Assembly (NCBI GenBank): GCA_965261395.1
Contig: OZ253462.1
Coordinates: 5,184,001-5,248,000, forward strand
DNA: 64,000 nt
Direction: 5' to 3'
Source of the DNA: Candidatus Latescibacterota bacterium
Lineage (GTDB): Bacteria; Latescibacterota; UBA2968; UBA8231
Position 1 is the first letter of the stretch. Each line of letters begins with the position of its first letter. Under the pieces are notes generated by a model. The model made no database searches and had not been told where the DNA came from. It was given only the letters and a program-made list of their open reading frames with translations. The position numbers and the translations under genes were made by a program. Positions 21,364 to 48,178 of the stretch are shown here, piece by piece.

Positions 21364-21666
21364 ATCGCCACCATGCTCGCTCAGCTTTCGGGACTGCCCA
21401 CCTGCCTCGTGCGCAAACAGGCCAAAGAATACGGCACCTGCAAACTCGCCGAAGGTCCCGACATTGCCAGCAAAAATCTGCTGATCGTTGAAGATGTGGT
21501 CACTTCCGGTGGACAAATTGCTCTTTCCGCTCAGGACCTGCGCAATCTCGGCGCAGAGGTTTCGCAGGCCATCTGCGTGATTGACCGCGAATCCGGCGGC
21601 ACCGAGAGCCTAGCCCGAGCAGGCATTGAACTCCGCGCCTTGTTTCGGATGAGCGAACTGAAGTGA
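21364..21666 (+). pseudogene. pyrE: Orotate phosphoribosyltransferase, C-terminal half only
   Basis: IATMLAQLSG...VRKQAKEYGT...LIVEDVVTSGG (PRPP motif)...VIDRESGG. The N-terminal half is absent and the homology begins immediately after the upstream stop codon. Confidence 0.8.
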
Positions 21667-23147
21667 CGGTGGGTGCCGAAAGCGACTCATCCATGAATCG
21701 TCCCAATATCCTCTTCATCCTCTCCGACCAGCACAGCAAATTCCACCTCGGCTGCTACGGCGACCCGCTGGTGCGCACCCCGCACCTCGACCGCCTAGCC
21801 AGCGAGGGCATGCGCTTTGCCAACGCGTACACTCCCTCGCCTTTGTGCGTACCAGCGCGCATGGCCTTTATGACCGGGCGGCGGCCCAGCGCCAACCAAG
21901 TCTGGGGGAACGACCACATCCTCAACTCGGCGCTGCCGACTTGGGCCCACGCCATGGGAGCGGCCGGATACGAAACCGCGCTGATCGGCCGCATGCACTT
22001 TGTCGGCCCCGACCAGCGCCACGGCTTTGAGCACCGTCCCATCGGCGAGTACAGCGCCCGGCATCCGGGTGCGGCCCAGCAGGGCGGGCCGATGTTCAAG
22101 GACATCCCCGCCAGCACCTCGGGCCAGACCCGCGAATGCGTCGAAATAGCTGGGTACGGTCGCACCACGTACCAAGCCTTTGACGATCGGGTCGCTGAGG
22201 CGGCTTGCGCTTATTTGGAGGAAAAGGCGCAAGCGCACGATCGGCCCTTTGCCGCAGTAGCCGGCTTTGTGCTGCCGCACTGCCCTTTTTTCGCCCCCAA
22301 GGATCTATACGATTATTACTACGACCGCGTCGATGTGCCGCAACCCGACCCGGCCGGGGAGCCAGCGGCGGTGACTAATTTCAAAAAGCGCCGCCTCATT
22401 GACGAACCCCTGCCCAAAGAGCGCATCCGCGTGGCGCGGGCGGCCTATTTTGGTCTGTGCGAATACTTCGACCGCAAAGTCGGCCAGCTCCTCGACAAAC
22501 TCGACGAGACCGGCTTGCGCGACAATACCTTGGTGATCTACGCCAGCGACCACGGCGAGATGGCCGGCGAGCACGGCTGCTGGTGGAAGAGCAACTACTA
22601 CGAAGGCTCGGTAGGCGTCCCCCTCATCGCCCGTTTGCCTGGAGTGATACCAGCGGGCGTGGAAAACCCGGTGCTGTGCAATTTACTCGATTGGGCACCC
22701 ACGGCCGTAGAAGTAACCGGCGGCGAGCCCCTGCCCGCGGCCGACGGCCATTCGCTGTGGCGCGAACTACAAGGTCACGCGGATGACGCCCGCCCCCATA
22801 CCACCTTCAGCGAACTGGGGCCCTCGCGCGGAGGCCCTCCTTCGCGCATGATCCGGCAGGGGCCGTGGAAGCTCTACAAATATCACGACGACACCCCGCC
22901 GGCTTTGTTCAATCTGGCGGACGATCCAGGGGAATGGAACGATTTGGGCAGCGCTGGTGCCTACGCTGCCCTGCGGCAAAATTTGCTCGACCAGCTCTAC
23001 GCTGATTGGGACCCCAAACAGGTGGCCCGACGCAGCGCTGAAATGACGCGGAATGCCCAAGTGCTGACAGCGTGGGGACGGGCGGTGCAGCCCCTGCACG
23101 AAGATACTCTGCCAGTCGAAGACGACGAGGATGTGGTGCGCTGTTGA
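21663..23147 (+). CDS. Sulfatase (choline-sulfatase-like, formylglycine-dependent)
   Basis: RPNILFILSDQH, CVPAR (CxPxR), GRMH and SDHGEM motifs. Start is GTG 21663 or ATG 21693. Confidence 0.92.
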   Translation: MTVGAESDSSMNRPNILFILSDQHSKFHLGCYGDPLVRTPHLDRLASEGMRFANAYTPSPLCVPARMAFMTGRRPSANQVWGNDHILNSALPTWAHAMGAAGYETALIGRMHFVGPDQRHGFEHRPIGEYSARHPGAAQQGGPMFKDIPASTSGQTRECVEIAGYGRTTYQAFDDRVAEAACAYLEEKAQAHDRPFAAVAGFVLPHCPFFAPKDLYDYYYDRVDVPQPDPAGEPAAVTNFKKRRLIDEPLPKERIRVARAAYFGLCEYFDRKVGQLLDKLDETGLRDNTLVIYASDHGEMAGEHGCWWKSNYYEGSVGVPLIARLPGVIPAGVENPVLCNLLDWAPTAVEVTGGEPLPAADGHSLWRELQGHADDARPHTTFSELGPSRGGPPSRMIRQGPWKLYKYHDDTPPALFNLADDPGEWNDLGSAGAYAALRQNLLDQLYADWDPKQVARRSAEMTRNAQVLTAWGRAVQPLHEDTLPVEDDEDVVRC

Positions 23148-23157
23148 GGGAGTCGCC

Positions 23158-26100
23158 TCACATATACGACAGAAAATGCCCAGTCTCCCCCAGCACTCCA
23201 TCAATGCACAGCCACAATCCGGCCGCCGTCGCCTCGCCCAAAATCAGCCCTAAAAAAAATGGCTTGGCCCGCTCGTAAAGCGGCATCCCGCCCCACTTGA
23301 CAATGCCCAGTTTGAGCGCCCACGCGATGCACACTGAAAACCACACTTGATTAGCCAGCCAGCCCACGCTGACGATAAACCCCAACGGGTGCAACGGCCA
23401 CCAATAAAACCGATGGTGCCCCCACAAAAGCACGGCCTCGAAGAGTCCGCCGATGCCGGTAAAAAACCAACCCCGCCCGTCGGCTGGCAGCGGATCGACG
23501 ATCGGCCGCGCCATGTCGGTAAATGTGCGCCCGGCCTGACGGGTCATAAAGAAGGGGTGCAAATTGATCCCGCCGTGCTCGTAACACACCTGAAAAATGA
23601 TCCACGTCGCCCCGGCCAAACTCACCACCAACGCCAGCGCCATCCCCCAAAACAGCCGCCTTTTAGAGCCAACCACCGCCTCGGCCAGCTTGAGCGAATT
23701 GGCCGCGGCAATCATCGGAAAAAGCCGCATCTCGGACTGCCAGATGTAGGTAAAGGTCAGGGCCGTCAGCCCCTTGGCCCCAATCACCGGTGCGCCGACC
23801 GCGGAAATGACGAAAAACGCCGCCACCATCGGCGAACGCGCCGTCGCCAACCCGGCCGTGGCCACCGCCCGCGTGACGAACACGTAGAAGAGCAGGCACA
23901 CCAACAAAAACAGCGGCAAAATCGCCAGTGGCACCCCGGACGCCCACAGCCAGACGCCCACGAAAAACAGGCTGGCCAAAAAGCCAAAGACCGCCACCCG
24001 GTAGGAAAGCATCTCCCCTGAATCATCCACCGTTGGGTCGCCGCGCCACGCCTTGCGCCACACCGCCCCCAAGTGCTGCCGCCCCATCCACAAGGTGTAG
24101 CCGACGAAAATTAGACAAGCCCCCATCACCTCGTGCGTCAGATCCGCGGTCTGCGAGTAGGAGTAGAGACTCAGCTTTTCGCTGCTGGCAATGCCTAAGT
24201 CGGCGAAAATCCCCTCTTGTGCCTTGTTGAAGACGTAGAAGAACCAAATCGAAAAGGAAATGTTCAGGTTGACCAAATAGAAAAAGCCGATCCACGCGTA
24301 CACCCAGTGCAAATTCAGCTTATTGCCGATCCACGACAGGAGCCCAGCCGACTGAATCGGCTGCGGCACCGCCGGGAAGTAGTAGTGCAGCCCCTTGAAC
24401 GACAGCAGGACGAACGGCACCGCAAAGCCGATCCACAACAGCCGCTGCTTAAAAAGCGGTGCCAGCTTAAATCCCGGCCGGCCCTCCTCCACCATCTTGA
24501 GCGGCAGTTGCACCATGGGATAGGCCAGCCGCTCGTGCTGCGACCACTGCCGGTGCAGGATGGAACTCATGCAGAGCATCATAAAGCTCAGCACCAAAAA
24601 GAAGACGTACCAATAGCCCAGGGTCTCGCTCCAAGCCCCCCACGGAATGCTCTCCCCAGGCGGCAGCCCCTCGTGCAAACCGACAATCGCCTGCCGGTCC
24701 TGCGGTGCCAGCCACGGCGTCACGTGCGGAAAGAAAATCTCGCCCCAGTTGTTTTCCGGGGTCGCGTAGTAGTACAGCCCGCTGATGATCGGAATCAGGT
24801 AGCCGACAAACGCCTGCGTTGGCACCGCCGACGCTAGCAGCATCATCGCGTAAATGAGCACCAAATCGGCCCGCCCCAAGGCGAGGCCGCGGCCGAGCGC
24901 CCGCAGCAGGGTATTGCCCCCCACCACCAACACAAAAAACAGAAAGATCGCCCCGGGCGACGAGCTGTTGAGCGCCATGTACGACCCTTGTAGCATAATC
25001 ACCGCATAGGGTGCCCCCATGCCGATGCCCAAGGCCAACAGCGCCCCCACCGCAAACCCCCGCCAAGTAAAGGACGCCGACTGTTCCGCTGCCAACTGTT
25101 GCTCCACCCGCTCCTCGGCCTGCTTAGCCGCCAACGCTCGCGCCGACTCCACGTGCTGGACTCGCTCGGCCTCCCGGAGCGCATACCAAATCAACATCTG
25201 CTTCCGCAGCGCCTCCACCAGCCGCAGATTGAGCCGCTGCCAGTAGTGGTGCTCGCCGCTTAGTCGGCGCAGCCTGACTTCCATCGCCCGTGCACGCGCT
25301 TCGGCCGACACGAACTCCACGACCACCTCTTGGCTCACCCCCAAGTCAAACGGGGCCAACCACAGCGTAAACGAGAGGCGATAGCCGTCGGCCTGCGTAA
25401 CTTGCATATCTTCGACGTAGAAATCCCCCAGCGTCGCCCGACCAAAGGCCCCAAAGTAGTTGGCCAAAAAGCCGCACACCCCCTCGATTTCTCCCTCGCC
25501 GAGCATGAAGGGAAACTCAAACAGCCACTCGTCGCCGCTGGGCGGGTCTGGCCGCCAGCGCCGCACCACGTCCGGCACCGCCTGCCGCGCTGCCTGCCGC
25601 GCCGGATAGATCGTCGAGAGCAACACCACCCCCATCACCGCCAGCGCGGCCCCAATCGCCGCCAGCGACGAGTAGTTCAAGGTAATGCCCTGCAACAACC
25701 CCAGTGCTAACAGAACCCGCCCCAACCCCTGGCCCAGCAAGTAGCCCAGCGTCGTCCCCAGCACCGCATAGACGCAGGCTTCGGCCACAAACAGCAGCGC
25801 GATGTGCAAGGGAGCCAGCCCCACCGAGGAATAGATGCCGATCTCGCGCAGGCGTTCGTGCACCGCCCCCATCATCGCATTGAGCACAATGAGCGCGGCC
25901 ACCAGCGCGGGAATCGCCAGCGCCCCCAGCCCCTCCACAGCCGTCAGCCCCACCGAGCTCAGGGCCGTCACCTCCCCTTCCGGCGAGCCGACAAACAAGG
26001 TAGCCGCCACCCGCGTCAGATAGTCCTCGACCAGCGCCTGCCCGTCGGTCGCCCCCGGAAAGCGCACGGCCACCGAGCGCAAGCTGCCCCCGGCCTCGGC

Positions 26101-29100
26101 CAGCGTTTGATAGGGCACGAGGACCACGTGGTGCGGCTTTAGGTGGATGAAGGGCCGCAGTTCGTGTGGATCCTCCTCGTCGGCAATATCCACATCCTGC
26201 GCTGCCCCTAGCTGGAGCACCTCTGCGCCCGACAGGACAAAATCGGCCGGCATCAGACTCTCGTCGTCGAGGTCGCGCAGTTCACCCAACCGCTCCGGGT
26301 CGGCAATCCCGCGCACCTTCAGCACGCGCCCGAACACTTCGACCTGATCCCCGACCCCGATACCCAACGCCTCAGCCATGTCCAGCGGCAAGATGCAGGT
26401 GGCCTCGTCATCTGCGGCAAAAAACGATCCAGCCACCAAGCTCGCATCCACCCGGGTGATCTGCGCCTCCTCTGGCGTCAGGCCCAACAAGCCCGTGGCC
26501 CGCACCGCGTTTCCAGCCGCCGTCACCGCGATCCAGCCCCCCTTGCCGCCTTCGGCCGCGTACCAGCCGCGTCGCCCCATCCAGCCGCTGCCGCCAAAGT
26601 GCGACTCAGCGTAGTCGAGCGCCTCCGGCGTCAGGCGCTCCCAGCCGCGATCGCGGATGAGGATCCCGGGGTACGATCCAGCGTGTGGTAGCTGGAAACT
26701 CGCGTAGCGGATTTGCTGTTCAAACGAGGTAAAAGAGAGCAGGGTAAACGTCAAAAGCGTCAGCGTCGCCAGCGTCAAACCGGTGCGCAGAGGCCGCCGC
26801 CGCATATTGGAAATCCCCAGCATGAAGGCCGCATAACTCGCGCTCAAGCGGCTCAGGTCCTGAGCGTGGACCCGCATCTGCTGGCTCTGGTGCTGGGCCA
26901 TGACGCGGTTGAACCGGCTTACCAGCATACAGAGCACCAAGGCAGCCATTGCCATGATCGCAAACGCCAACAGCACCACCAGCGGCTCGGCCAGCTCAAA
27001 GGCTGGATGTACCTGCGCCAAAATCAGCCAAATCGCCAGCAATAACAGCCCAAAGCCAGCGAGCTGCCGGCGAATATCGGCCGCGGCAAACAAGAGCCGC
27101 TCCCCGAAAAAGGCCGCCGGCAACAACAGCGCCATAAAGAAGATCACCCCTTCGAGGACGTCGTTGAGCGTCGCCAAGACCTCCGGGTAGGCCCGCGTCT
27201 CCAAGCCCAGCGCCTTGCGGCTCCACGCGATGTACTCATCCCACTTTAGTTGCTCGGCCGCTGCTGCCGCCTCGGCTATGGCCGCCGCCGCCTGCGCGTG
27301 GAGGCGCGTCAACCGCTGATTTTCAATGCCGTGCTCCTTGAGCACTCCCAGCCGCGCCGCATCCAAGTTCCACACGTCTTGCGCCGCCTGCAGCGTCGCG
27401 GCCCCAAATCCCTCCTCGGCCAGCAAAAATCCCCGGCCCCGCGCCTCGACCTCGCTTTGGCTGCCCTCGCTGTTGAGCAACAAAAGCTGACCGTCCAAAA
27501 TCACTTTGACGCGATCGTCGGCCGCGGCATCGACCGGCCCGTAGATTACTCCCACCGAGCCAATGCTGCTTGGACCCAGCGCGTACCCGTACTGGCCCGG
27601 CTCGCCCCCGTCCGCTGACAGCACCTTGACTTGGTTCAACGCGCGCAAAAGGCGCGGCTCGACCAAGCCGTACAGAGGCCGACCCACCCCGGGGAAGAGC
27701 ACGGCGATCTGCTCGTTTTGCGGCCAGCGCACATTAGTGGCCAAGCGGCCATCCGCCCCCGGTTTCCCGTGGTGCGCTTGCGCGCGGGTGCTCAAATCCA
27801 CGACGTGGGTAAGCACCCCCCGCTCGGCGTCCAGCGCCGCCACCGCCAGCGGATACGTCCCCTGCACCAGCCCAGGGACCCGCGCCGTCCCGGCGGCATC
27901 CGCGAGAAAGTAGCGCGTGTCGCGCACTCCTTTGCGCTGTTCTTTTTCTACCTGCACCGCCACCAGCGCCCCGGCCACCGGCCGGTCCGGCACCTGACTG
28001 CGCCGGGGAAACGTCCGCGCTTTGACCCGCAAATCCCGCAGCCGATCCTCCAACGCCTCCTCGAGCCGCTCCCGCCCAGCCAACAGCGCCGTATCGGCCA
28101 ACGCATAGGCCAGTAGATCGGCCACTAGCGCCGCCTGTCCTTCCACATGGTCCCACGCCACGCTCTCGCCCGTGTCCTGCGGCAAATCCAGCGCAAAGCG
28201 GGCATCGCCTACCGTGGCCAGCGTCAGCGACGGGAACCCCGTCTCAAGCGCCAACTCCCCATCCGCGACCAAGCCCCCAGGCATATAGCTGTCCCAATCC
28301 ATTCCCCGAATTGGGCTGATGCCATTGGCCACCGCCTCGGCGCGGCCCAGTGCCTCCGCGTACTCGGTAAAGCGACGGCCAAAGGGCACGAAAAACCGCT
28401 TGAGCGCGTAGCTATCCGTGTTGTTCCACAGTACCACCCGCTCGCCGTGGCTGGACAAATCAAGACCAATGAACAGAGCAATATCCAGCGGCTCGGCCAG
28501 CCGGGCCGCGTAGTACTCTTGGCGGCGAGCGTGCCGGTCGAGAAAGGCGACCATGCCCTGCCGCCCTTGGAAGTGGGCACCCAGCGCGGCGATCACCACC
28601 GTGTGCGCTGGTGGGTTTGCTTGCAAGCGAGCAACCACCTCCAACAGCGCCGCTACACTCACCGCCGCCTCTGCCCCCGGTGCCCGCGCGGGCACCACCG
28701 ACGGCGCGTCGTAGTACGCATGGATGAGTACCGTCTCGTCCCGCGAGGTCCCCGCATCCTTGCCCGGCACCACCGCCCACACGTTGTACGCCACTCGCTC
28801 CTGCCAATCCATCCGCCCCCACAGCCCCACCTCCACCTCTCCATCCACCAACCGCCGCCGCAGCCGCTGTCCAGCGGCCCCCTCCACCCAAAAGCGTGGC
28901 ACATCCAACGGTGCCCGCACGTACTTGCCCTGCGCCTGCTGCGTAGTAGCCGAATCCGCAGCCACAAACACCACCGCCCGCGCCCCCAACGACGCGGCCT
29001 TCAGCCAAGCGTCCCCACTGGCAAAGTCCAGCACCACCACCCGCCCAGCCACCTCCTGCCCATTGAAATCGCCCCAATCCCCATCGCCGCCCCAAATCGC

Positions 29101-29424
29101 CGACGCCCGCAACCCCTCCGGCGGCACGGTCGAAGTCCGCGCCCCATTCGGCCACACCGCGTACAAGGGTACCGACTCATCCTCCCACTCCAACCGCCCA
29201 CCCCGGTCCATCGGCACCACCACTGCAAAGGAGTCGCGTCGCGTCGCCAGCCCCAACGCCTGCAACCGCCCCTCTACATACTCCGCCGCTTGGGCACTCC
29301 CCGGATACCCCGCCACTCGCGATCCCAGTGAGGACAAATGCTCCACAATAGCTCGCGGCTCTGCAGAAGCCGCCACCGGGCCGATGGCAAAGGCGATCAA
29401 AAAGGCGATCATCAGCGCAATCAT
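23158..29424 (-). CDS. Giant fusion: M28-peptidase-like/PA domain + FtsX-like permease + C-terminal polytopic DUF6785-like transporter domain
   Basis: Signal peptide; SRVAGYPG, HAYYD, PGAEAA (M28-like); ERLREIGIYSSVGLAPLHI (FtsX); ERLAYPMVQLP and WWPLHPLGF (DUF6785/6784-like). One continuous ORF of about 2088 aa. Confidence 0.75.
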   Translation of the reverse strand: MIALMIAFLIAFAIGPVAASAEPRAIVEHLSSLGSRVAGYPGSAQAAEYVEGRLQALGLATRRDSFAVVVPMDRGGRLEWEDESVPLYAVWPNGARTSTVPPEGLRASAIWGGDGDWGDFNGQEVAGRVVVLDFASGDAWLKAASLGARAVVFVAADSATTQQAQGKYVRAPLDVPRFWVEGAAGQRLRRRLVDGEVEVGLWGRMDWQERVAYNVWAVVPGKDAGTSRDETVLIHAYYDAPSVVPARAPGAEAAVSVAALLEVVARLQANPPAHTVVIAALGAHFQGRQGMVAFLDRHARRQEYYAARLAEPLDIALFIGLDLSSHGERVVLWNNTDSYALKRFFVPFGRRFTEYAEALGRAEAVANGISPIRGMDWDSYMPGGLVADGELALETGFPSLTLATVGDARFALDLPQDTGESVAWDHVEGQAALVADLLAYALADTALLAGRERLEEALEDRLRDLRVKARTFPRRSQVPDRPVAGALVAVQVEKEQRKGVRDTRYFLADAAGTARVPGLVQGTYPLAVAALDAERGVLTHVVDLSTRAQAHHGKPGADGRLATNVRWPQNEQIAVLFPGVGRPLYGLVEPRLLRALNQVKVLSADGGEPGQYGYALGPSSIGSVGVIYGPVDAAADDRVKVILDGQLLLLNSEGSQSEVEARGRGFLLAEEGFGAATLQAAQDVWNLDAARLGVLKEHGIENQRLTRLHAQAAAAIAEAAAAAEQLKWDEYIAWSRKALGLETRAYPEVLATLNDVLEGVIFFMALLLPAAFFGERLLFAAADIRRQLAGFGLLLLAIWLILAQVHPAFELAEPLVVLLAFAIMAMAALVLCMLVSRFNRVMAQHQSQQMRVHAQDLSRLSASYAAFMLGISNMRRRPLRTGLTLATLTLLTFTLLSFTSFEQQIRYASFQLPHAGSYPGILIRDRGWERLTPEALDYAESHFGGSGWMGRRGWYAAEGGKGGWIAVTAAGNAVRATGLLGLTPEEAQITRVDASLVAGSFFAADDEATCILPLDMAEALGIGVGDQVEVFGRVLKVRGIADPERLGELRDLDDESLMPADFVLSGAEVLQLGAAQDVDIADEEDPHELRPFIHLKPHHVVLVPYQTLAEAGGSLRSVAVRFPGATDGQALVEDYLTRVAATLFVGSPEGEVTALSSVGLTAVEGLGALAIPALVAALIVLNAMMGAVHERLREIGIYSSVGLAPLHIALLFVAEACVYAVLGTTLGYLLGQGLGRVLLALGLLQGITLNYSSLAAIGAALAVMGVVLLSTIYPARQAARQAVPDVVRRWRPDPPSGDEWLFEFPFMLGEGEIEGVCGFLANYFGAFGRATLGDFYVEDMQVTQADGYRLSFTLWLAPFDLGVSQEVVVEFVSAEARARAMEVRLRRLSGEHHYWQRLNLRLVEALRKQMLIWYALREAERVQHVESARALAAKQAEERVEQQLAAEQSASFTWRGFAVGALLALGIGMGAPYAVIMLQGSYMALNSSSPGAIFLFFVLVVGGNTLLRALGRGLALGRADLVLIYAMMLLASAVPTQAFVGYLIPIISGLYYYATPENNWGEIFFPHVTPWLAPQDRQAIVGLHEGLPPGESIPWGAWSETLGYWYVFFLVLSFMMLCMSSILHRQWSQHERLAYPMVQLPLKMVEEGRPGFKLAPLFKQRLLWIGFAVPFVLLSFKGLHYYFPAVPQPIQSAGLLSWIGNKLNLHWVYAWIGFFYLVNLNISFSIWFFYVFNKAQEGIFADLGIASSEKLSLYSYSQTADLTHEVMGACLIFVGYTLWMGRQHLGAVWRKAWRGDPTVDDSGEMLSYRVAVFGFLASLFFVGVWLWASGVPLAILPLFLLVCLLFYVFVTRAVATAGLATARSPMVAAFFVISAVGAPVIGAKGLTALTFTYIWQSEMRLFPMIAAANSLKLAEAVVGSKRRLFWGMALALVVSLAGATWIIFQVCYEHGGINLHPFFMTRQAGRTFTDMARPIVDPLPADGRGWFFTGIGGLFEAVLLWGHHRFYWWPLHPLGFIVSVGWLANQVWFSVCIAWALKLGIVKWGGMPLYERAKPFFLGLILGEATAAGLWLCIDGVLGETGHFLSYM

Positions 29425-29585
29425 AGCGTCCCAATATCGGCCCCCAACGTCCCGTATAGCAAGCAAACTAACGGACGCGGCTTTGTCGGCACGGGCTGGA
29501 GTACCGCTTCTGCGACGATTATCTTTTTGCAAGGGGGAACTTCAGCTATCGGCAAGACGTTCAAACGCAATTGAAGGAGGGCTTC

Positions 29586-39140: not shown

Positions 39141-41624
39141 TTAGTGCGGCACGCCCAACTGGTGCATCCGGCGATGGATCGCCTCTCGCGCTTGCAGGAA
39201 GGGCCGCTCCAGATAGGCGAGGTGATCCGCCTCACCGTGGTGATGCGTAATGTCGTCGCGCAGATGCTGGCGGCTGTTGTGGCGGATGTAGTGCAGTGAG
39301 CCATCCACCAAGGTCAGCATGTACTGCGCCGTCTCTTGGTTGAACATCCACCACTCGCCGCCGCAGGCCAGATACACCGGCGAGGTGTGCGCCATGATCC
39401 CCCGGCCCCATCCATCGAAGTGCTGTACGCTCTGTTCGTAGCCCGGCCCGCTGCACCGCGCCGCCAGCCACGAGTGGCCCTCCACCTTTACCGCAGCCTG
39501 CAGGCGCAACTTGCGCGTCCCCTTGGCCTCTTCCACAGAGGCCACCACCCGCCCCTCCTGCACCACCTCCAGTGTGTGGATCGGCACCACCGACTCGGCC
39601 TCGGCGACCACCTCCACCGTGCCGCCATTGCCCGGCAGCCGCACCGTATCCCCCACCTCATGCCCATCGACGCTGAAGCGGATCAGCGGGCCGCCGCTGT
39701 GGAAGGTGCGACCCGCGGCCATGTACTTGCACCAGTTGTCGTAGGTGAACGGCTCGTCCTTGGGGATCTGCACGTAGGTGCGATAGATCCCCACCGGCAC
39801 ATCGCTGCTCATTTTGTCGGTGCCGCCGACCAGCGGCAGCTTGTAGCCGCAATTGAGGTAGCGGTAGTACTCGCCGTGCATGTACATCCCGTGCCGGAGC
39901 ATCTCCACTGCGTCGGCGCGACCCGTGGCAATCAGGGCGGCTGGCTCGCCGTTGGGGCTGGGCAAATGCGGGATCACCACGCTGCCGCCTTGCGCTCGGC
40001 AGCGGTCGGCCCACTCGGCCATGGGCACTTCGAGCGTTCCGCCCAGTTCGGCTTCGCCCAGGCCGTCCGAACACCACGGCATCACCGGCTCCTTCAGCCC
40101 CATGAGGATCAGATGCCCCAAAAAGTGCTGCCTATTTTCTTGGGATACATAGACGATATGATCGCCATTAGGCGTGGCCATTTCGCCGCCGGTAAATTCT
40201 TCGGTATTGGTAAACAGCCCGCCCCACTGCGATTGCAGCAGGTTGACCACGTTCAAATCCTCACCCTGCGCCTCGGTAAGGCTACCCTGCGCCGAGAGGA
40301 AATGCACGTGCGAGTCGCCGCTGTACCAGCCTTCCTCGTTCATCTGCCGCCAGCGCTTCAACCGCAGCTCCAAGATGCGCTGGCCTGGCTCGATTTCCAC
40401 TTTGGTGCGCAGCGGCTCGTATTCGTAGCCACGCGCCACATCCACGATCACTTCGCCGCGCGGCAGCCAGCCTTGGCAGGTGCCGTCAATGTACGCATAG
40501 GTGATCTGCCCCAAGCGCACATCGCCGCCCACATCGAAGTGCCAAGTCCCCATGTTGGAGTTGACGTGGGCGTGGTGGCCGTGCGGAGCGTAGGGGATGC
40601 CCTCCGGCGAGCGGAAGTGGACGCGGCAGGGCACGGGTTTCCCAGTGGCGTCGTCGATGACCTTGGTATGTACCCAGTTGCGCCCGCGCTCCACCACCTC
40701 CAGCCGCACCCGTGGCGAAGCCTCCACGCGGCCCTGCTGCCGCACCTCCTCCCAGCGGGTCTCGCCCAAAACTTCTCCGTCTCGCTTAACCTGCACGGTG
40801 GCCGAAGGATTGGCGGCAATTTCCACGTATGAAGGGCTGCTGCCCTCGTTTTGGGCTTCGCCCCAGCCCTTGCGCCCATCGAGGAAATCCTCGGCCGTTG
40901 CTTCCGGCAATGGGTAGGGATAGGTCGCAACACCCCGATCTACTTCCACTTCAAGGGCGGCGGATTCGCTCGCGTCCTCTTCTTGCGGCAGAGTGATAAT
41001 GACCTCGCGCATGCCCTCGCGGCAGATCGGCTCTTCGTCCAAATCGCTCAGGGTGATTCCACTAATGACAAAGGCCGGACCCGCAGCCTCGATGGCGATT
41101 TTTTCCAACCCCTTGTCCGGGTGCGGATTCGGCCACGCCCAGAGCACGAAGTGCTGCGCGCGCCCGGCATCGGCCTCGGTCTGGCGACGCCCGACCATGT
41201 CCCACGGGCCCTCGGTGCGCGGCAAGAGTTGATCATTCGTATCGGGCACCGCCACAAACGGCGCACCCCCATACGACGACGGCACAGTCGAGATTTCAAA
41301 GCGATCGCGCACTGGCACCTTGAGCACATCCCCGTCCTCGTAGTGCAGCGCGTATTCAGCTACCGCCACCGCCAGCGGCCCATTGTCGGCGATCCGCGAC
41401 TCCAACAGACGATGCGCCACAATCATCCAAGTCACCCGCCGACCGACCGGGATTTCCACACCGGACCGCTCTCCACCACAGGCGATCAGACAGCGCCCAG
41501 CATCGCTGCCAAGCGCAAAGGGCAAGCCGCGAAAGCATTGTGCGCCGAGCGGGCCTTGGCCCCCCAAGATGTCCAGCCCAGCGTTGTACAGCGCGTTCAA
41601 ATCCAGCGGTGTGTAGGTGCCCAT
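39141..41624 (-). CDS. CehA/McbA-family PHP-domain metallohydrolase (tandem paralog)
   Basis: YSGDSHVHF, ENRQHFLGH, IPH, GGTD and AHTSPVY motifs; RBS AAAGGAGG. Confidence 0.82.
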   Translation of the reverse strand: MGTYTPLDLNALYNAGLDILGGQGPLGAQCFRGLPFALGSDAGRCLIACGGERSGVEIPVGRRVTWMIVAHRLLESRIADNGPLAVAVAEYALHYEDGDVLKVPVRDRFEISTVPSSYGGAPFVAVPDTNDQLLPRTEGPWDMVGRRQTEADAGRAQHFVLWAWPNPHPDKGLEKIAIEAAGPAFVISGITLSDLDEEPICREGMREVIITLPQEEDASESAALEVEVDRGVATYPYPLPEATAEDFLDGRKGWGEAQNEGSSPSYVEIAANPSATVQVKRDGEVLGETRWEEVRQQGRVEASPRVRLEVVERGRNWVHTKVIDDATGKPVPCRVHFRSPEGIPYAPHGHHAHVNSNMGTWHFDVGGDVRLGQITYAYIDGTCQGWLPRGEVIVDVARGYEYEPLRTKVEIEPGQRILELRLKRWRQMNEEGWYSGDSHVHFLSAQGSLTEAQGEDLNVVNLLQSQWGGLFTNTEEFTGGEMATPNGDHIVYVSQENRQHFLGHLILMGLKEPVMPWCSDGLGEAELGGTLEVPMAEWADRCRAQGGSVVIPHLPSPNGEPAALIATGRADAVEMLRHGMYMHGEYYRYLNCGYKLPLVGGTDKMSSDVPVGIYRTYVQIPKDEPFTYDNWCKYMAAGRTFHSGGPLIRFSVDGHEVGDTVRLPGNGGTVEVVAEAESVVPIHTLEVVQEGRVVASVEEAKGTRKLRLQAAVKVEGHSWLAARCSGPGYEQSVQHFDGWGRGIMAHTSPVYLACGGEWWMFNQETAQYMLTLVDGSLHYIRHNSRQHLRDDITHHHGEADHLAYLERPFLQAREAIHRRMHQLGVPH

Positions 41625-41665: not shown

Positions 41666-42454
41666 ATGGCTTGGGGGACCGAGTTATGCAAAAAAGCAGT
41701 CAGTACAAGGGATGTCAGATTAGTTTTTCTGCGTGTTGACCCACAGGCTCAGACAATAAGCTCAATCCTCGTCCTGACCCCAGATTATATCGAGAGAAAA
41801 TTCGGACGCTTTGGTAAGCCGACGATTAAACACCAAATCATAATTCCGCCAAAAGTTAGAGATAAGGCGCTAGATCAAACTCCGCCGGGCATTTTCTGTT
41901 CAGATACGTCTGCTCTTTCTCAACATGTAACGGGGAAGTATGCTATTCCGACCTCTCCAATAGGTGATAAACCTATTTTGGATCAGCTATTTTCTTTGAA
42001 ATTGCTGCGAGAAATGCTAGTGGATGGGCTAATTGGTGAACCATTGGATCAAATGGCTACAAAAAACAGAGGGCAAGCGTTAGAGCGCTTGGTTGCTTGT
42101 CTATTAGGCTACAAAATTAGTGATGCTGAGCTTTTAGAGGGGAATTTTCCCGATATTCCCAACCAAGCCTTGGAAGTCAAGGTACAGGATTCGCCGACCG
42201 TAGATCTAGGAAAATTCAGTCCCCAGTTCAAAGAGTGCGTACCGTCCTGTCCTAGCTTAACGACGTTAGATGTCCGCTACTTGATAGCCTTGACTGATGC
42301 AGAGACGGGCATTGTTCAGGGGATAATTTTATGTCCTGGTGAGAAGTTAGGTGAGCATTTTTCATACGTAAGCGACACTAGTTTTAAGTGCCAAAGATCA
42401 ATCCCTATGTCTTTTTTTCATACGTACCAAGGCAAAGCACTTTACAATCCCTGA
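41666..42454 (+). pseudogene. Type II restriction endonuclease (probable cognate of the BseCI/ClaI-like MTase), probably 5'-truncated
   Basis: RGQALE...FPDIPNQALEVK PD-(D/E)xK motif; low GC; convergent with and overlapping the MTase 3' end. No convincing start or RBS at the GC transition near 41700. Confidence 0.6.
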
Positions 42455-42573
42455 GACGAGAGTAGCGGCTCGACGCCAAAGGCTTCCGCTACAACAATCT
42501 CTAAATCAGTCTCATATTTCTCGGTCATATTGTCGCCTACGTCAGCCGACACCAACTTTTTCACCAAATCTAC

Positions 42574-43758
42574 GGCTTTGGTGCATGAATTGGTGTTTTT
42601 TTCGGTTGATCGGTTGAATAAAAACAGGCTCCTCAGTAGATTGAGCACGACTTTCGCCAAAAAACCCATGCTTTCTCGTCCAAGGAACCTGTCATGGCCA
42701 ACCTATCGTCTTGCCCCTCTTCCGTCAAGCCTGGTCGCTCGCCTCGCCGTCGCTCCAACGTCGTGTACCGGGTACGTAATTGGGCCGACTATGAGGCCGG
42801 GCTGCAACAGCGCGGTAGTCTGACGGTGTGGTTCACGCCCCAGGCCGTCGAAGCTTGGTATTATCAAGGGCCGCCTCAGCGGGGGGCGCAATATACCTTT
42901 TCGGAGGTCGCCATCCAAACGGCGTTGACGCTGCGTCTTTTGTATCACTTGCCCCTACGCCAAACCGAGGGGTTTGTCGCTTCGGTGTTGGCCCTGATGG
43001 GCTTGGATCTGCGGGTGCCCGATCACACGACCCTGTCGCGCCGTCAGGCGGGTTTAGCCGTGGCGTGGCCGCCCCAGCGGGGAGACCAACCGATGCACTT
43101 GGTGGTGGATTCGACCGGGCTGAAAGTGTATGGCGAAGGCGAATGGAAGGTGCGTCAGCACGGCTGGAGCAAGCGGCGCACGTGGCGCAAATTGCACCTC
43201 GGGGTTAATGAAGCCACCGGCGAGATCGTCGCGCAGACCTTGACGACGAATAGCCACGATGATGCGGGGCAGGTGGAGCCGTTGCTGGCACAGATCGAGG
43301 CCCCCGTGGAGGCGTTGGGCGGCGATGGGGCCTATGACAAACGCAAGGTGTTCAAGGCGTTGGCCGCGCCCGAGCAGGGGGCACCTATTCATCCGATCAT
43401 TCCGCCGCGCAAGGACGCCAAAATCGAGCAACATGGCAACACCAACGCCGAGCCGTTGCCCCGCGATGAGACGATTCGAGCCATCCGCAAACGGGGCCGT
43501 CGAGGTTGGAAACACGAGAGCGGCTATCATCGACGCTCGGTAGCCGAAACGCAGATAGGCCGCTACAAACAGATACTTGGTGACACCTTGCGCACCCGAA
43601 CCCTAACCAACCAACAGACCGAAGCGCGGTTGGGCTGTGCCTTGCTCAACCGGATGCGGGCGTTGGCGAAACCTGAGTCCTATCCGCTAACCAAAAAAGC
43701 GTAAATCACACGCGAAAGAAGCCAACACGGCCCCGACCGGTTTTCATGCAACAAAGCC
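42574..43758 (+). mobile_element. Complete IS5-family (IS903 group) insertion sequence, 1185 bp
   Basis: TIRs GGCTTTGGTGCATGAA and TTCATGCAACAAAGCC (15/16 match); 9-bp target duplication CAAATCTAC at 42565-42573 and 43759-43767. Confidence 0.95.
42694..43704 (+). CDS. IS5 family DDE transposase
   Basis: YRVRNWADY...RGSLTVW, VVDSTGLKVYGEGEW, WRKLHL, DGAYD and YHRRSVAET motifs. Confidence 0.95.
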   Translation: MANLSSCPSSVKPGRSPRRRSNVVYRVRNWADYEAGLQQRGSLTVWFTPQAVEAWYYQGPPQRGAQYTFSEVAIQTALTLRLLYHLPLRQTEGFVASVLALMGLDLRVPDHTTLSRRQAGLAVAWPPQRGDQPMHLVVDSTGLKVYGEGEWKVRQHGWSKRRTWRKLHLGVNEATGEIVAQTLTTNSHDDAGQVEPLLAQIEAPVEALGGDGAYDKRKVFKALAAPEQGAPIHPIIPPRKDAKIEQHGNTNAEPLPRDETIRAIRKRGRRGWKHESGYHRRSVAETQIGRYKQILGDTLRTRTLTNQQTEARLGCALLNRMRALAKPESYPLTKKA

Positions 43759-45691
43759 CAAATCTACTATCCTCCTAGAATACGCAGAATGCCTATCTGG
43801 CATTGGGTATTTTTCTACATATTGAGTTAAATAGCGCCGCCGGCCAGCGTACAGTTTGTTATTAAATACCAGCTCGTGATAACGAGTCATCAGATTTGAA
43901 TTCGCTATCCCTTGGATAAGGAAGAGCATATCCGTGTTTTCTTCTTCTGAGACGATCCAGTAACAGTTGCCATCAACCATCAAACCTTCGTGATCATAAA
44001 AGAACATTGGACTAGGACTAATATCGGGAAAGATGAGCTTGGGGCGCTGCAAAGCTAAAGGATCTTGGGGCACCCAAATCTCGTACCATTTTCTATTAGC
44101 CTCAATTACGTATTTCCGTCTTTCTAATCTCTCACGGTGTTGCCTAAGATATGCCGCCGCGCATGGATACTGTTCTATGTCAATAGCTACTCGTTTCGCG
44201 TCCCTGACTTCATGAGTATATAATATTTTTTTAAGCGATTCATTCCTTGTGCCAGATCGCCAGCGGCTAGCGTCGTCGTGTGAGAATATGGGACGTAGTA
44301 AACAGTCCTCCGGTCGCCTATCTTCAGGTACATCGTCCCAGTCCGAGCGAATAAAAACTCGATCGGCTGTCGTCTTAATACCAACCCTCACCTTCACAAC
44401 GTCGCCAATTCGGCACTTTGCCGCCGATTCTACTTTACCAATCCACTCTTTCTCAAGCGCAGTTGCCATCCGCCAGGGTTCGGAGGGTAAGTTAGAAAAG
44501 GAAAGACTCCCCGTCGAAAATTTGAACCGGGTTTTAGATACCAAATATTCACCGTCAGAATTTTGTCTGAGAATGTCGTACACTGAGTTAACATGGACTG
44601 GCTTTTCTCGATCATCGCGATTATTTGTCCTATTCTCGTAAATTCTGACAAATCTATTTAGCAGCCTCGGATCCATAGAGGAACGCAATGTAGAGGGTAC
44701 TTTTCTAGCGATCAAAATAGCTGGCAGAACGGCAGCCTCGAAAAGCTTGGTGTCGCCAAGGTCAATCAATTCGACGATCTCGTAATTTTCGGCGATGAAC
44801 GCTCTGATGGAGGCTCCACCTTTTGTTGAAATAAACCGATTGGACGTGATGACGCCTATAATGCCACTGTCTTTTAAGCACTGGGTCATCGCCACCAGAA
44901 AAGCTTGGTATAAATCGATTCTGCCTTTCAGGCGAAAGGCTTTTGCTAACTCCTGTGATTTCCGAGCGCCGAGGACCTGCGTTCGGACGTAAGGAGGGTT
45001 GGCGATTATAATATCTACAGGAGGAATAGTCTTGTTAGTTGGAGGCCCGTTGTTAAACAGCCCTATCTGTGCCTCTGAATCGGTGTAAAGTTCCAGGAAA
45101 TCCATCCTCTTGAGAAAATTCGATTTTGAGCTGAGCACTTCTAACCGCTCTTGGGCTTTCCCGAGGGATAAATCGTCGAGCTCTATCCCTGTAATGACGG
45201 TATTTCTTAGTGCATTATCTGGCAGTGAGTTAGCTAAGGCGACTAGTAGTTCTCCATCGCCACAGGCTGGATCCAAAACCCTTAGTTCAGGGAGTTGATG
45301 AAAGTCCGCTTCGGCGACTAGTCTCTCTGCGAGAAAACGAGCAAGTTCAGGAGGTGTGTAATGCGAACCAGTAGCTTTTTGTTTAGTAACAAGTGGCATC
45401 TGGGCATAGCCCTTTGTTTTCAATATTAAGGCTGTAAGAATCAAACTAAGAATCGAATATCAATGGACCCATGTCAACCTGAAAACCTGTGAATGGTTAC
45501 ATTTTTAAACTAAACTTACTACTCACACGCAGATACTTGGGTGCTCTTGCCCCCAATAAGTCTGCTCGCTAACTTGCTGGCCAATGAGGCCGAAGTCCCC
45601 GTTACGCTTCCCGCCATTAGCTTGCGCCTCCTCTCCCACGCCCGTACCTTGGCCGCCCATCGCCTTCCCCGCCCTCAAGGAGCCTCCCAAG

Positions 45692-46927
45692 ATGAAAATC
45701 ACCAACATCGAAGTCATCCCCATCTTCCCCAAGCTGGCCAGCCGCTACGCCGCGCGCCGCGTCGATCTCTACGGCATCGACTGCCGCGTCGTATACAAAG
45801 TCCACACCAACGCCGGCATCATCGGTTACGGCGACATGCGGGTGCGGCCCTACGCCCAACCGTCCCGCGACTCCGTCGCCCAGTTCATTGGCCTCAGCCC
45901 CTTCGACTTCATCAATGACCATCGCTCCGCCGTTCCCTCGGGCCTGCTCTGCGCCCTGTACGACGCGATGGGCAAACACCTCGACCTGCCCGTCCACAAA
46001 CTCCTCGGCCAGAAAAAGCGCAACGCCATCGCCGTGGCCGCCTGGACCCGACCCGCTTCCCCAGAGGTTTTCCGCGACGAGATCAAACGCGCCGCCGCCG
46101 AAGGCTATCGCGTCTTCAAAATCCACACCTGCACCCACCACGACGTCTTCGAGCAGACCCGTCTAGCTACAGAAGTCGCCCCGGAGAGCTTCCGCATCCA
46201 CTACGACTTCAACCACAACCGCAGCCTCGGCAGCGCCCTGCCGATCATCGCCGAACTCGAACGAAATTTCCCCATCGTCGGCTACATCGAAGACCCGCTC
46301 GACAAAAGGGACATCGACGGCTGGAAGCGCCTGCGCCAGCAGACCAGTCTGCCGCTAATCATGCACGGCACGCCCTTGGGCGGGGTCCAAGAACTGATCT
46401 ACGGCCTCGCCGACATGTACATGATCGGCGGCACCCTCGAAGATACCATGGCCGCTGGCTGGGCCTGTGGCCGGGCCAATGTACAAGTTCTGCTGCAATT
46501 TGAAGGTGGTACTCTGGGCAAGGCCATGGCCATGCACATGGCCTCGGTGCTGCCGACCCACACCGCCCATTCGATTAACCTCGACGACCAGTACGCCGAA
46601 GACTACACCACCGAAACCATTCCCGTCGTCGATGGAGCCTCCCCCGTACCCAACGGCCCGGGCTTAGGTTTTGCAGTCGATGAGGACGCGCTGGCGCGGC
46701 TGGCAGCCCAATCGCTCGTCGAGCGTCCAACCCACGTCGGCGTCTTGCAGATGCCCGGCGGACACACGTACTACGGCCCGTCCTACATCTCCCCCACCAG
46801 CATTACCGGCCATCAGGAGGGCGTTGACCGCGGCTTCCGCTCTTCGATTTGGGAAGACGACGGCTCCGCCGAGTTCGCCAAAGTCCACGACCGCGTCAAC
46901 AAGGAAGGCGTCTTCCGCGCCGACTGA
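45692..46927 (+). CDS. Mandelate racemase/muconate lactonizing enzyme (enolase superfamily)
   Basis: MKITNIEVIP, ALYDAMGK..LPVHKLLG, FKIH, YDFN, IEDP and PNGPGLG motifs; RBS AAGGAG. Confidence 0.88.
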   Translation: MKITNIEVIPIFPKLASRYAARRVDLYGIDCRVVYKVHTNAGIIGYGDMRVRPYAQPSRDSVAQFIGLSPFDFINDHRSAVPSGLLCALYDAMGKHLDLPVHKLLGQKKRNAIAVAAWTRPASPEVFRDEIKRAAAEGYRVFKIHTCTHHDVFEQTRLATEVAPESFRIHYDFNHNRSLGSALPIIAELERNFPIVGYIEDPLDKRDIDGWKRLRQQTSLPLIMHGTPLGGVQELIYGLADMYMIGGTLEDTMAAGWACGRANVQVLLQFEGGTLGKAMAMHMASVLPTHTAHSINLDDQYAEDYTTETIPVVDGASPVPNGPGLGFAVDEDALARLAAQSLVERPTHVGVLQMPGGHTYYGPSYISPTSITGHQEGVDRGFRSSIWEDDGSAEFAKVHDRVNKEGVFRAD

Positions 46928-46929
46928 CG
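46881..46929 (+). repeat. Direct repeat copy: 3' end of the enolase-superfamily gene
   Basis: 49 bp with 5 mismatches to 48130-48178. Confidence 0.9.
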
Positions 46930-46951
46930 ATTTTACGTTGTCAAATCGCGG

Positions 46952-48073
46952 CTAGAAGCGCGCCGCGGCTAGAGGGCCGGGGTCGCGTCCGTCCAGGGCC
47001 AGTTCCACCATGCGTTCGGCGGCCAACAGGCCGATGGAGTTGCCGTAACCACTAAAGCCTAGGGCAAAGACCGCGTCGGGCAGATCCGGGAGGGCACCGA
47101 CAGCCGCCCGGCGATCCGGAGTGAAGCCGTGGATGCCGGCCCAGTGGTACTCGATTTCAAAGGAGAGGCCCGGGAACCAGCGGCGCAGATAGGTCTCGAG
47201 GTTCTGTAGCAGATTCGGGGTGACGGCGTCCTCGGCAGTGTACTCCTGCTCCTCAAAAAAAGCCCGAGCACCACCGATCATCAAACGCCCATCTTCAAAC
47301 TGACGGAAGTAATGGTATTCGGTGATGCCGGCGACCTCCATCAGGGGTTCCACTGGGGTGGTCACGAGAATCTGGCCGCGCACTGGGCGCACAATGCGGC
47401 GCAGGTACGGGTGCAGATCGCAGCCATATCCGTTGGTGGCGATGTACACCTTGCGGCAGCGGATATGAGCACGGCGTCCACGCACCCTCAGGCCCTGGCC
47501 CTCCGCTTCGATGCGATAGACCTCATTGTGGTCGTAGAAGGTGGCCCCGGAGGAGGAGGCAATGGCCTCGGTGAGGCGTGCTGGTTGCACCATGAAATCG
47601 CCCTCCACCTGTAGAGATGCCGCGTACCCAGCGCCATAGGGATCGCTCTGGGCAAACTCGACCTCAACGCCGTCGGCTGCAAAGGCGCGGGCCCACTCTT
47701 CCAGTTCACGGGCGTCGGCTTGGGTTTCGGCTAGGTGGATGGCACCCTCTTCCCAGGGCACTTCGTACTGCTTGGCCAAGGCGCGCATCCGGGCGACGTT
47801 GTCGCACACCATGGCGAGGATTTGGCGGGCGGCCGGGTGCCCCACTTGGGCGATGAGGATGGGGTACGTCTCGCGCTGCGAGGTCAGCACAAAGCCGGCG
47901 TTGCGGCCCGATGCACCGGCGGCCGGAAAGCGGGCATCGACCAGGGCCACATCGCGGCCCCGCTGGTGCAGCAAGGTAGCTGCGTACGAGCCGACAATGC
48001 CAGCGCCGATCACCACATCGTCGTGTTCAGCCTGCAACGGCTCAGATACTTCCTGCCATTGGGATACAGTCAT
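46952..48073 (-). CDS. FAD-dependent oxidoreductase (DAO/PuuB-like)
   Basis: VVIGAGIVG, GASGRNAG, ATNGY and GFSGYG motifs. Confidence 0.9.
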   Translation of the reverse strand: MTVSQWQEVSEPLQAEHDDVVIGAGIVGSYAATLLHQRGRDVALVDARFPAAGASGRNAGFVLTSQRETYPILIAQVGHPAARQILAMVCDNVARMRALAKQYEVPWEEGAIHLAETQADARELEEWARAFAADGVEVEFAQSDPYGAGYAASLQVEGDFMVQPARLTEAIASSSGATFYDHNEVYRIEAEGQGLRVRGRRAHIRCRKVYIATNGYGCDLHPYLRRIVRPVRGQILVTTPVEPLMEVAGITEYHYFRQFEDGRLMIGGARAFFEEQEYTAEDAVTPNLLQNLETYLRRWFPGLSFEIEYHWAGIHGFTPDRRAAVGALPDLPDAVFALGFSGYGNSIGLLAAERMVELALDGRDPGPLAAARF

Positions 48074-48129
48074 AATGCCTCCAAGGGGATGATGGCCGTT
48101 CCGGGATTGTCGCCCCCGATAATCGGCCT

Positions 48130-48178
48130 AAGTTGACGACCGCGTCAACAAGGGTGGCGTCTTTCGCGCCGACTGACG
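48130..48178 (+). repeat. Displaced duplicate of the enolase-gene 3' end (…DDRVNKGGVFRAD*)
   Basis: AAGTTGACGACCGCGTCAACAAGGGTGGCGTCTTTCGCGCCGACTGACG versus 46881-46929. Confidence 0.9.

Follow-up and report, generated by a model that had tools for sequence, protein, structure and literature searches.

Gene 3′-end repeats flank a Hachiman cassette and other accessory genes in a Latescibacterota genome

A 64,000-nucleotide stretch of the genome of a Candidatus Latescibacterota bacterium (contig OZ253462.1 of assembly GCA_965261395.1, positions 5,184,001 to 5,248,000 of the forward strand; hereafter the window) carries two accessory cassettes, one a Hachiman defence system and the other a single gene for a DAO-family FAD oxidoreductase. 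Each cassette lies between the intact copy of a conserved gene and an orphan, diverged copy of the 3′ end of that same gene. We regard it as moderately probable that these direct repeats are the scars of recombinase-independent insertions that were anchored by homology at conserved gene 3′ ends, here at two convergent junctions. An original prediction, made from the letters of the window, had described two clear captures of this kind and a third, probable one, and attributed them to DNA arriving from a relative or to a recombinase acting in trans. The observation is partly confirmed, in that it is real for two of the three cases (PhyH/Hachiman and enolase/DAO), and the interpretation is partly supported.

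The genome studied (G000; relatives carry other G numbers) comprises 6.55 Mb in one contig with 0 N and 59% GC, and the window corresponds to G000:C1:5184001-5248000. Coordinates are those of the window unless marked as genome. Open reading frames (ORFs) were taken as the longest ORF of at least 150 amino acids, which is a crude way of calling genes, and domains and defence systems were annotated using Pfam and PADLOC.

Two cassettes at convergent gene junctions

At the first site, a creD-family gene and a PhyH-family gene are held apart by 4.6 kb of DNA whose only genes encode HamA (DUF1837) and the helicase HamB (Table 1), the adjacent pair by which a Hachiman system is recognized. The GC content of this cargo is 0.497, versus 0.633 in the flanks. 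Beside creD lies the orphan copy of the PhyH 3′ end, which differs from the corresponding part of the intact gene by eight substitutions, five of them at third codon positions, and by a deletion of one nucleotide (nt), such that 224 nt align with 225. The repeat extends 6 nt beyond the PhyH stop codon and takes in the stop codon of creD, and homology then continues at roughly 70% identity into the creD 3′ end (35615-35656 versus 30777-30810). Because homology runs on into this creD remnant, the true duplication amounts to roughly 265 nt and encompasses the whole convergent creD/PhyH junction. The only candidate microhomology at the cassette junction is an offset GAGCC. The arrangement originally proposed for this site (PhyH gene, Hachiman, a 224-bp copy and convergent creD) was found with its repeat, its cargo and its empty sites in relatives.

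Two minor features of the cargo ends were also recorded. A 12-nt word, TGAGACCAGAGT, occurs just within both ends (31061-31072 and 35471-35482); the region of the right-hand copy is missing in the sister genome G022, and the repetition is possibly due to chance. Furthermore, a contig of the public run X1 has 237 bp of the right non-coding end of the cargo (35414-35652), including the creD remnant, swapped for 10 other letters, and the right junction of this variant stops exactly where the repeat begins.

The creD/PhyH junction was searched for in G000 and 40 relatives, 24 of which belong to the same genus. The two genes are contiguous, forming an empty site, in 11 of these 24 genomes (G001, G002, G003, G004, G007, G008, G009, G011, G018, G021 and G024). 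The same Hachiman cassette is carried by G022, with HamA 96% and HamB 85% identical to the G000 proteins, and both its left breakpoint, between GAGCC and TGAGCCCTTCGGG, and its right breakpoint are those of G000. The right breakpoint is also common to G012, in which the orphan measures only around 125 nt and the cargo is rearranged, with the C-terminal two thirds of HamB, a PLD/SNF2 fragment and a DprA-like ORF. Other genomes hold other cargo at the same place: a SASA-esterase gene (2.3 kb, G010) and an AAA-ATPase/PDDEXK gene (1.6 kb, G013), both without an orphan, and 5.8 kb of secreted NHL/peptidase genes (G006), with a short decayed PhyH fragment by creD. In G020, a copy of the junction is found on each of two contig ends; the junctions of G005 and G019 end in contig breaks, and the remaining same-genus genomes are too distant or gave no match. 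No integrase domain was found in the cargo ORFs of relatives at this junction. Because the relatives show differing cargo and orphan lengths, or no orphan, the creD/PhyH junction is a repeatedly used slot with variable breakpoints rather than a fixed attachment (att) site.

At the second site, an enolase-superfamily gene and a second PhyH-family gene (PhyH2) are separated by 1.2 kb of DNA with DAO as its sole gene. The orphan is a direct copy of the end of the enolase-family gene that matches over 53 nt with six mismatches, slightly longer than the 49 bp given when this second case was proposed. The junction between DAO and the orphan offers a 3-nt microhomology, GCC. An empty site, in which the enolase-family gene abuts PhyH2, is present in G018, G011, G002, G005 and G020. 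The occupied state with the same DAO-side junction is found in G022 and in G004, where the orphan carries a nested insert of around 230 bp and has lost an internal stretch. A third state, a 152-bp scar that resembles both ends of the DAO cassette, occurs in G001 and G012.

An ortholog of DAO (89-90% identical) resides at another locus, between two convergent genes, in 12 relatives. At the equivalent position in G000, between genome nucleotides 697903 and 697904, the site is cleanly empty and the stop codons overlap, GGCCTAGGGC. Indeed, across the genomes compared, DAO at one of the two loci goes with its absence from the other. By this comparison, DAO appears to be a resident gene that moved locus within the genus. 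In G001, the alternative DAO locus carries an extra insert of around 1 kb (L043, G001:C1:3372000-3381000, ~3020-4080), for which a DPPY motif suggests a Dam-like N6-adenine methyltransferase; this junction may be a variable slot as well.

Both window repeats align to single-copy empty sites in relatives (11 for the first case and 5 for the second), and are thus not chance similarities. No recombinase was found in the window cargo by Pfam, as the original prediction had held for integrases and recombinases near these sites, and the only transposase in the span belongs to an insertion sequence (IS). The captures are not recent: the window events are old and are common to sister species.

Gene-tail repeats across the genome

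Self-alignment of the genome for direct repeats of gene 3′ ends had been proposed as a check on whether the pattern recurs. A plus-strand self-BLAST, restricted to direct-repeat pairs of 40-600 bp with at least 85% identity and lying 0.6-40 kb apart, yielded 155 pairs. Among them are 42 with an orphan downstream of a gene 3′ end and 9 with an orphan upstream, together with 11 paralog pairs, 21 pairs within ORFs and 72 others. The excess of downstream over upstream orphans (binomial p <1e-5, by our own arithmetic) has no counterpart in the mirror-image control with gene 5′ ends, which gave 23 versus 24. In 22 of the 42 pairs, the end of the repeat falls between -3 and +8 nt from the stop codon. 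The 42 pairs merge into 36 regions. Repeats of at least 97% identity, taken to mark young events, lie at genome 6423708, 2189570, 4996724 and 5990176. In line with the original prediction, the pattern extends across the genome, and the creD/PhyH junction is used repeatedly.

The cargo scan covered 129 ORFs in 33 regions, with the two window regions scanned separately and one 29.9-kb region excluded. Integrase, resolvase and large serine recombinase domains were found in none of the 129 ORFs; the three or four IS transposases among them are passengers. The cargo of repeat-flanked loci is rich in defence systems, which include BREX (DUF6079, PglZ, methylase and helicase), CBASS (SMODS, ThiF, JAB and SAVED), a XamI restriction-modification (RM) system, Mrr with a caspase, GmrSD, AAA_15/21 ATPases and a C5 methylase set. 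The remaining cargo comprises IrrE/HTH pairs, toxin-antitoxin parts, Fic, RmuC, and metabolic and surface-protein genes. Genome-wide, there are four PF00589 (tyrosine recombinase) matches, three of which exceed the cut-off and none of which is nearer than tens of kilobases, and the entire 6.55-Mb genome gives 0 matches to either serine recombinase family searched (PF00239 and PF07508).

At L054 (genome 1571881-1580257), three copies of one gene tail stand in series, including a 698-nt partial copy followed by a 121-nt copy, with toxin-antitoxin, IrrE/HTH and methylase genes between them, as if one gene end had received two insertions in succession. At L066 (genome 3989451-4005023), the 3′ end of a gene is repeated over 314 nt on either side of a BREX island of 15 kb. 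In G018, this gene tail recurs as a second, partial copy around 14 kb downstream (G018:C1:4630141-4644596).

The copies at many loci differ from each other as alleles do. Across the coding stretches of these 42 pairs, codon positions 1/2/3 hold 83/49/212 mismatches (62% third), codon differences are synonymous in 181 cases versus non-synonymous in 92, and only 23 alignment columns are indels. Seven loci were compared with 3-19 relatives each to assign the changes to one copy or the other: orphan-derived changes number 11/4/27 at the three codon positions, intact-copy-derived changes number 6/3/22, and at 39 further sites (4/2/33) both states occur in the functional genes of relatives. This pattern supports the view that many orphans would have diverged mostly within working genes of another lineage, and with it the original idea of a contribution of DNA from relatives, though at loci other than those first cited for it. 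Mismatches counted by fifths along the repeats (100/82/94/102/114) are uniform and have no power to separate the models.

The window repeats behave differently from these loci when polarized against 14 single-copy relatives. For PhyH, five of five polarizable differences are orphan-derived (codon positions 3, 3, 1, 3 and 2), as is the frameshift, and three are ambiguous. For the enolase-family repeat, all six differences are orphan-derived (2/1/3 at the three codon positions). The original count of five third-position changes among about eight therefore stands for PhyH; the conclusion drawn from it, that two functional alleles had been brought together, does not, since all polarized window changes lie on the orphan.

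The sequences of G000, G022 and G012 point to exchange between the two PhyH copies. In a four-way alignment, both G000 copies differ from both G022 copies at five sites, and only two or three sites separate orphan from intact copy across the two genomes; the two copies in G012 are identical over around 150 nt. Because the copies share states within each of these genomes, the alignment indicates gene conversion between the PhyH repeats. The window orphans thus look like decaying, gene-converted copies. The creD remnant is unconverted and far more diverged, at around 70% identity to creD, which fits an old Hachiman insertion that would predate the split of G000 and G022.

Which copy is the resident one was also asked at other loci, and the outcome is mixed, in contrast to the window, where the intact copies match the genus consensus. 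At L083, the cargo is found in 0 of 30 genus genomes, the intact copy has private states near the stop codon and the orphan is odd near the other end, giving hints of a reciprocal mosaic. A mosaic-like pattern is also present at L069, where the cargo gene RmuC natively follows the same gene in G018 and G006 and the orphan has private third-position changes. At L055 the states are interleaved. At L057, the copies are separated by a native downstream gene and an IS, and the orphan sits inside a composite block of 4.4 kb that is absent from G020.

Possible routes of insertion

The route of recombination, the donor and the timing are matters that we infer from these comparisons. If insertion was anchored by homology, DNA in which the cassette adjoins the flanking gene in a relative's version would pair with the resident gene by host homologous recombination. 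Fixation would then occur either by single crossover of a circularized fragment (Campbell type), which itself yields a duplication, or by a homologous join at one side and an illegitimate join at the other, called homology-facilitated illegitimate recombination (HFIR). The cassette would enter along with an additional copy of the junction, measuring around 265 nt for Hachiman (42 nt of creD and 224 nt of PhyH) and 53 nt for DAO. Both flanking genes would stay intact, one truncated 3′ end would be left as an orphan, and gene conversion between the copies and decay of the orphan would come later.

For either route, host recombination and the flanking gene as carried by a relative would suffice. 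The observations accord with integration of a circle by single crossover at least as readily as with a 3′-end anchor and an illegitimate join, which was the mechanism first put forward for this window. Of that proposal, the integrase-free insertion and the allele-like copies at other loci have held up, and the specific mechanism is conjectural. The 3′ bias is perhaps most simply explained by selection, as a promoterless tail fragment would be harmless and convergent junctions would tolerate insertions. A search for competence genes and orphan integrases gave a weak signal in the first respect, as ComEC is present in G000 but also in 10 of 14 control genomes and thus says little about competence; in the second, the three or four tyrosine recombinases all lie outside the cargo. 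No Ku homolog was found in G000.

Several points weigh against homology-anchored insertion. In both window cases the intact copies equal the genus consensus and no foreign allele is visible, and these two cases would fit a plain target duplication with later decay just as well. The null expectation for the codon-position test is uncertain, since the decaying window orphans themselves have 6 of 11 changes at third positions, and the polarization of repeat differences relies on species-level relatives that are 4-10% diverged. The count of 42 pairs comes from crude ORF calls, some pairs are non-independent, and some may be tandem paralogs (for example, the leucine-rich repeat array L072). At L057 and L069, native DNA makes up part of what separates the repeats, and the foreign DNA is located past the orphan, a layout that misfits an anchor in a gene with cargo following; contrary to the originally described scheme of gene, new cargo and orphan, the interval between the repeats is thus not in every case the incoming part. 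A search with HamA for the source of the Hachiman cassette matched only the sister genome and one weak, unrelated sequence, without a donor context. Finally, as described in PMC3240628, classical HFIR usually gives an insertion with a deletion in the recipient, not a duplication.

The first alternative is a true long target-site duplication, in which a double-strand break with staggered ends, or a switch of template during replication, takes up whatever DNA is to hand at the gene end and tens to hundreds of bases are then duplicated by fill-in, with no homologous donor gene and with differences arising later. We consider this rather unlikely, although several observations in the window speak for it: all polarized window differences, including the frameshift, are orphan-specific, DAO looks like an intragenomic relocation from an ancestral locus that is cleanly empty in G000, and its junction has only the 3-nt microhomology. 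This is also how the Kobayashi group reads the RM cases in the account given in PMC2853133. Genome-wide, however, 62% of mismatches fall at third positions with few indels, orphan-specific changes are at third positions in 27 of 42 cases and at second positions in 4 of 42, and 39 sites show both states among the genes of relatives, which would be hard to obtain by decay of an identical copy. The failure to find a Ku homolog in G000 also speaks against this route.

A conventional site-specific integration, in which the repeats are attL and attR and the integrase was lost or acts in trans, would produce an identical anatomy: an intact gene with a substitute 3′ end, an island and a displaced 3′ end. 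Phage 21 and e14 bring a substitute icd 3′ end in this manner, and the cis-mobilizable elements of streptococcal integrative and conjugative elements offer another parallel. The frequent halt of homology at the stop codon (22 of 42) and the allele-like divergence of copies are also as expected of such elements. We nevertheless judge this explanation improbable, given that no integrase was found in the cargos examined, and that three clear tyrosine recombinases and 0 serine recombinases would have to serve around 36 different target genes. No shared core motif was seen by eye in the 42 junctions, for which no motif search was run. Unlike site-specific islands, moreover, G000 cargo lacks a cognate integrase and independent creD/PhyH cargos have differing breakpoints or no repeat, the orphan there being 224 nt long in G000 and G022, around 125 nt in G012, short and decayed in G006, and absent in G010 and G013.

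An assembly artefact, with the second copy derived from a co-assembled strain, is very hard to credit for a single 6.55-Mb contig without N whose structure and junctions recur in the independently assembled G022, G012 and G004, and for which a contig from run X19 spans 31005-35652 and ends in both repeats; the summed depth over Hachiman is below that of the flanks in public contig sets (X15 and X1), perhaps because cassette-bearing and cassette-free strains occur together, and this depth is not usable as evidence. A contig joint from 31001 to 36202 was disregarded because one side has only 27 letters. A diversity-generating retroelement was also rejected, as the cargo has no reverse transcriptase domain and the mismatches are of mixed types rather than adenine-specific.

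Among known systems, the nearest likeness to the G000 scars is the insertion of RM genes with a long target duplication, which was reportedly first described by Nobusato et al. in 2000. In the account of Furuta, Abe and Kobayashi (2010, PMC2853133), such inserts are below 20 kb, have repeats of more than 30 to around 420 bp whose counterpart in an empty-site genome is a single copy, and carry no mobility genes. Some of these repeats overlap a gene 3′ end, the mechanism is given there as unknown, and the cases come mostly from competent species, with a few per species. The window repeats likewise exceed 30 bp (224/225 plus 42 nt, and 53 nt) and align to a single copy in the empty sites of 11 and 5 relatives, and the inserts of 4.6 kb and 1.2 kb have no mobility gene within or beside them. 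In contrast to the RM cases, the window inserts are without R and M genes, and the RM cassette that does lie nearby is without a long repeat. Across G000, moreover, the cargo comprises Hachiman, BREX, CBASS, GmrSD, Mrr with a caspase, toxin-antitoxin and metabolic genes at around 36 loci in one genome, a 3′ bias was measured, and the copies at many loci are allele-like rather than near-identical. The G000 scar is therefore best read as a broader variant of those RM insertions that come with a long target duplication, new with respect to its cargo beyond RM, its per-genome census, its 3′ bias and its allele-like repeats.

HFIR is said to have been described originally by de Vries and Wackernagel (2002), Prudhomme et al. 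(2002) and Meier and Wackernagel (2003). As presented in PMC3240628 and PMC5361080, a one-sided homologous anchor admits foreign DNA without a recombinase, and the other junction has 3-10 bp of microhomology. At the window junctions, the candidates are the 3-nt GCC of DAO and the offset GAGCC of Hachiman. The window loci show duplication with no recipient deletion and with both neighbours intact. As to whether the anchor gene holds a donor allele and the orphan a displaced resident one, the comparison of copies is equivocal, with genus-consensus intact copies in the window and allele-like copies of mixed direction elsewhere. An Escherichia coli design with one-sided homology that was meant to detect HFIR gave, in the results reported by Amarir-Bouhram et al. 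(2011, PMC3240628), 56 of 60 products by single crossover of a circle, with a duplication of 109-950 bp. Such Campbell-type integration resembles the G000 loci in the direct duplication of the homologous segment around the insert. It differs in that the E. coli case is a laboratory plasmid, and in G000 a natural circle and its transfer between cells are only inferred; hints of the reciprocal mosaic are present at L083 and L069, and none at L055.

C-terminal displacement in Rhs loci, reportedly described by Jackson et al. in 2009, is a further parallel. HFIR without an integrase is proposed for displacement of type VI secretion system effectors and for Rhs C-terminal displacement in the treatment by Kirchberger et al. 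(2017, PMC5361080). There, too, a new module arrives with a conserved upstream gene segment and the old 3′ end is pushed downstream as an orphan. However, the displaced ends in those arrays are distinct toxin domains with immunity genes, whereas the G000 orphan is a near-copy of an ordinary gene tail with no apparent function.

Core-genome defence hotspots, as outlined in PMC10250203 and PMC10121019, hold variable defence cargo between conserved genes, often without mobility genes. How defence and accessory genes move at such ‘core’ hotspots without an attached integrase, transposase or phage is the question on which the present scars bear. A literature search of limited depth found no description of this scar around defence systems other than RM. 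G000 provides an unusually clean natural data set for this purpose, with around 36 readable scars, almost no site-specific recombinases, and sister species in empty, shared and alternative states.

A bolder and distinctly more tentative possibility is that conserved gene 3′ ends act as recombinase-free attachment sites. Cassettes might leave as circles by recombination between the repeats and re-enter the empty sites of relatives by single crossover, carrying one tail allele with them. RecA-driven exchange of this type could shuttle defence systems (Hachiman, BREX, CBASS, RM and GmrSD) and single metabolic genes, and might be the chief way in which the genus acquires accessory genes. If homology-anchored insertion is correct, integrase-free gene gain could be detected and dated in any genome from partially duplicated 3′ ends of flanking genes, and the RM ‘long target duplication’ (known since 2000) would turn out to be a single instance of something general. 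Orphan gene tails, which are usually dismissed as junk, would then carry the donor allele or the displaced resident allele.

The pyrE remnant and neighbouring features

The third case originally put forward, a 3′ half of pyrE, is not an orphan of 3′-end replacement. The piece, which follows an FG-GAP/ASPIC-UnbV gene, is the sole pyrE sequence in G000 by both blastn and tblastn, and a tblastn search with the 171-residue PyrE of G011 finds only residues 72-171. In G006 and G018, the FG-GAP gene is followed at the same position by a 38-bp gap and then a full 516-nt pyrE. This candidate was therefore rejected, since there is no second copy in G000, and the piece is instead a 5′-deletion remnant of a pyrE that was once sited there. 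The sister genome G022 retains 131 nt of pyrE at this locus; in G011 and G010, the FG-GAP gene lies directly beside a sulfatase gene and pyrE is elsewhere. The locus that holds pyrE in G011 contains other DNA in G000 (genome 5085448-5086315). On these searches, G000 seems to be without an intact pyrE (orotate phosphoribosyltransferase gene).

Table 1. Features of the window discussed in the text, in window coordinates.
Feature	Position	Strand	Basis and remarks
FG-GAP/ASPIC-UnbV gene	19738-21363	+	Pfam; upstream neighbour of the pyrE remnant
pyrE 3′ remnant, codons ~72-171, 303 nt	21364-21666	+	5′-deleted pseudogene
creD-family gene	29571-30815	+	Pfam CreD; convergent with PhyH and originally next to it, as still in 11 relatives
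Orphan copy of PhyH 3′ end, 224 nt, with 1-nt frameshifting deletion	30811-31034	-	Self-alignment; same breakpoint in G022
Hachiman cargo overall	31035-35614	-	Pfam, PADLOC and GC
HamB	31115-34549	-	PADLOC E 1.5e-124
HamA	34536-35312	-	PADLOC E 2.3e-21; Pfam HamA (DUF1837) 38.1 bits, cut-off 25
Non-coding DNA inside Hachiman cargo, ~300 nt	35313-35614		
creD 3′-end remnant, 42 nt including stop, beside intact PhyH	35615-35656	+	Alignment with creD and empty sites; breakpoint common to G022 and G012
Repeat copy forming the 3′ end of the intact PhyH gene	35652-35876	-	
Intact PhyH-family gene	35658-36635	-	Pfam
Type II RM cassette	41704-45619	.	PADLOC; restriction endonuclease-like ORF ends at 42454 (weak REase_II match); methyltransferase 43744-45444 (MTase_II E 1e-202)
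IS splitting the RM cassette	42564-43757		DDE_Tnp_1 transposase 42694-43704
Enolase-superfamily gene	45584-46927	+	Pfam; stop codon 46925-46927; last 53 nt of feature (46877-46929) are the intact repeat copy
Single-gene DAO cargo	46930-48125	-	Gene flanked by ~24 nt on its 3′ side and ~50 nt on its 5′ side
DAO-family FAD oxidoreductase gene	46952-48073	-	Pfam
Orphan copy of enolase-family 3′ end, 53 nt, 6 private changes	48126-48178	+	
PhyH-family gene 2 (PhyH2)	48188-49234	-	Pfam; convergent with the enolase-family gene and originally next to it; start codon uncertain

A Type II RM cassette lies between the two main sites and is split by an IS. The cassette is present in eight genus genomes, absent with a gap of around 40 bp in seven, and reduced to an internal-deletion scar in G043; it has no long flanking repeat, though it is present or absent among relatives. 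The IS occurs in at least nine identical copies in G000. Contigs from four of the four public runs examined join position 42563 to 43758, which is the form without this IS copy.

Two paralogous ORFs of 827 and 828 amino acids (36586-39072 and 39141-41624) occupy the interval between the PhyH gene and the RM cassette and have no Pfam or PADLOC match. Upstream of creD, a single ORF of 2124 amino acids (23158-29532) combines M28 peptidase, MacB/FtsX permease, DUF6785 and DUF6784 domains.

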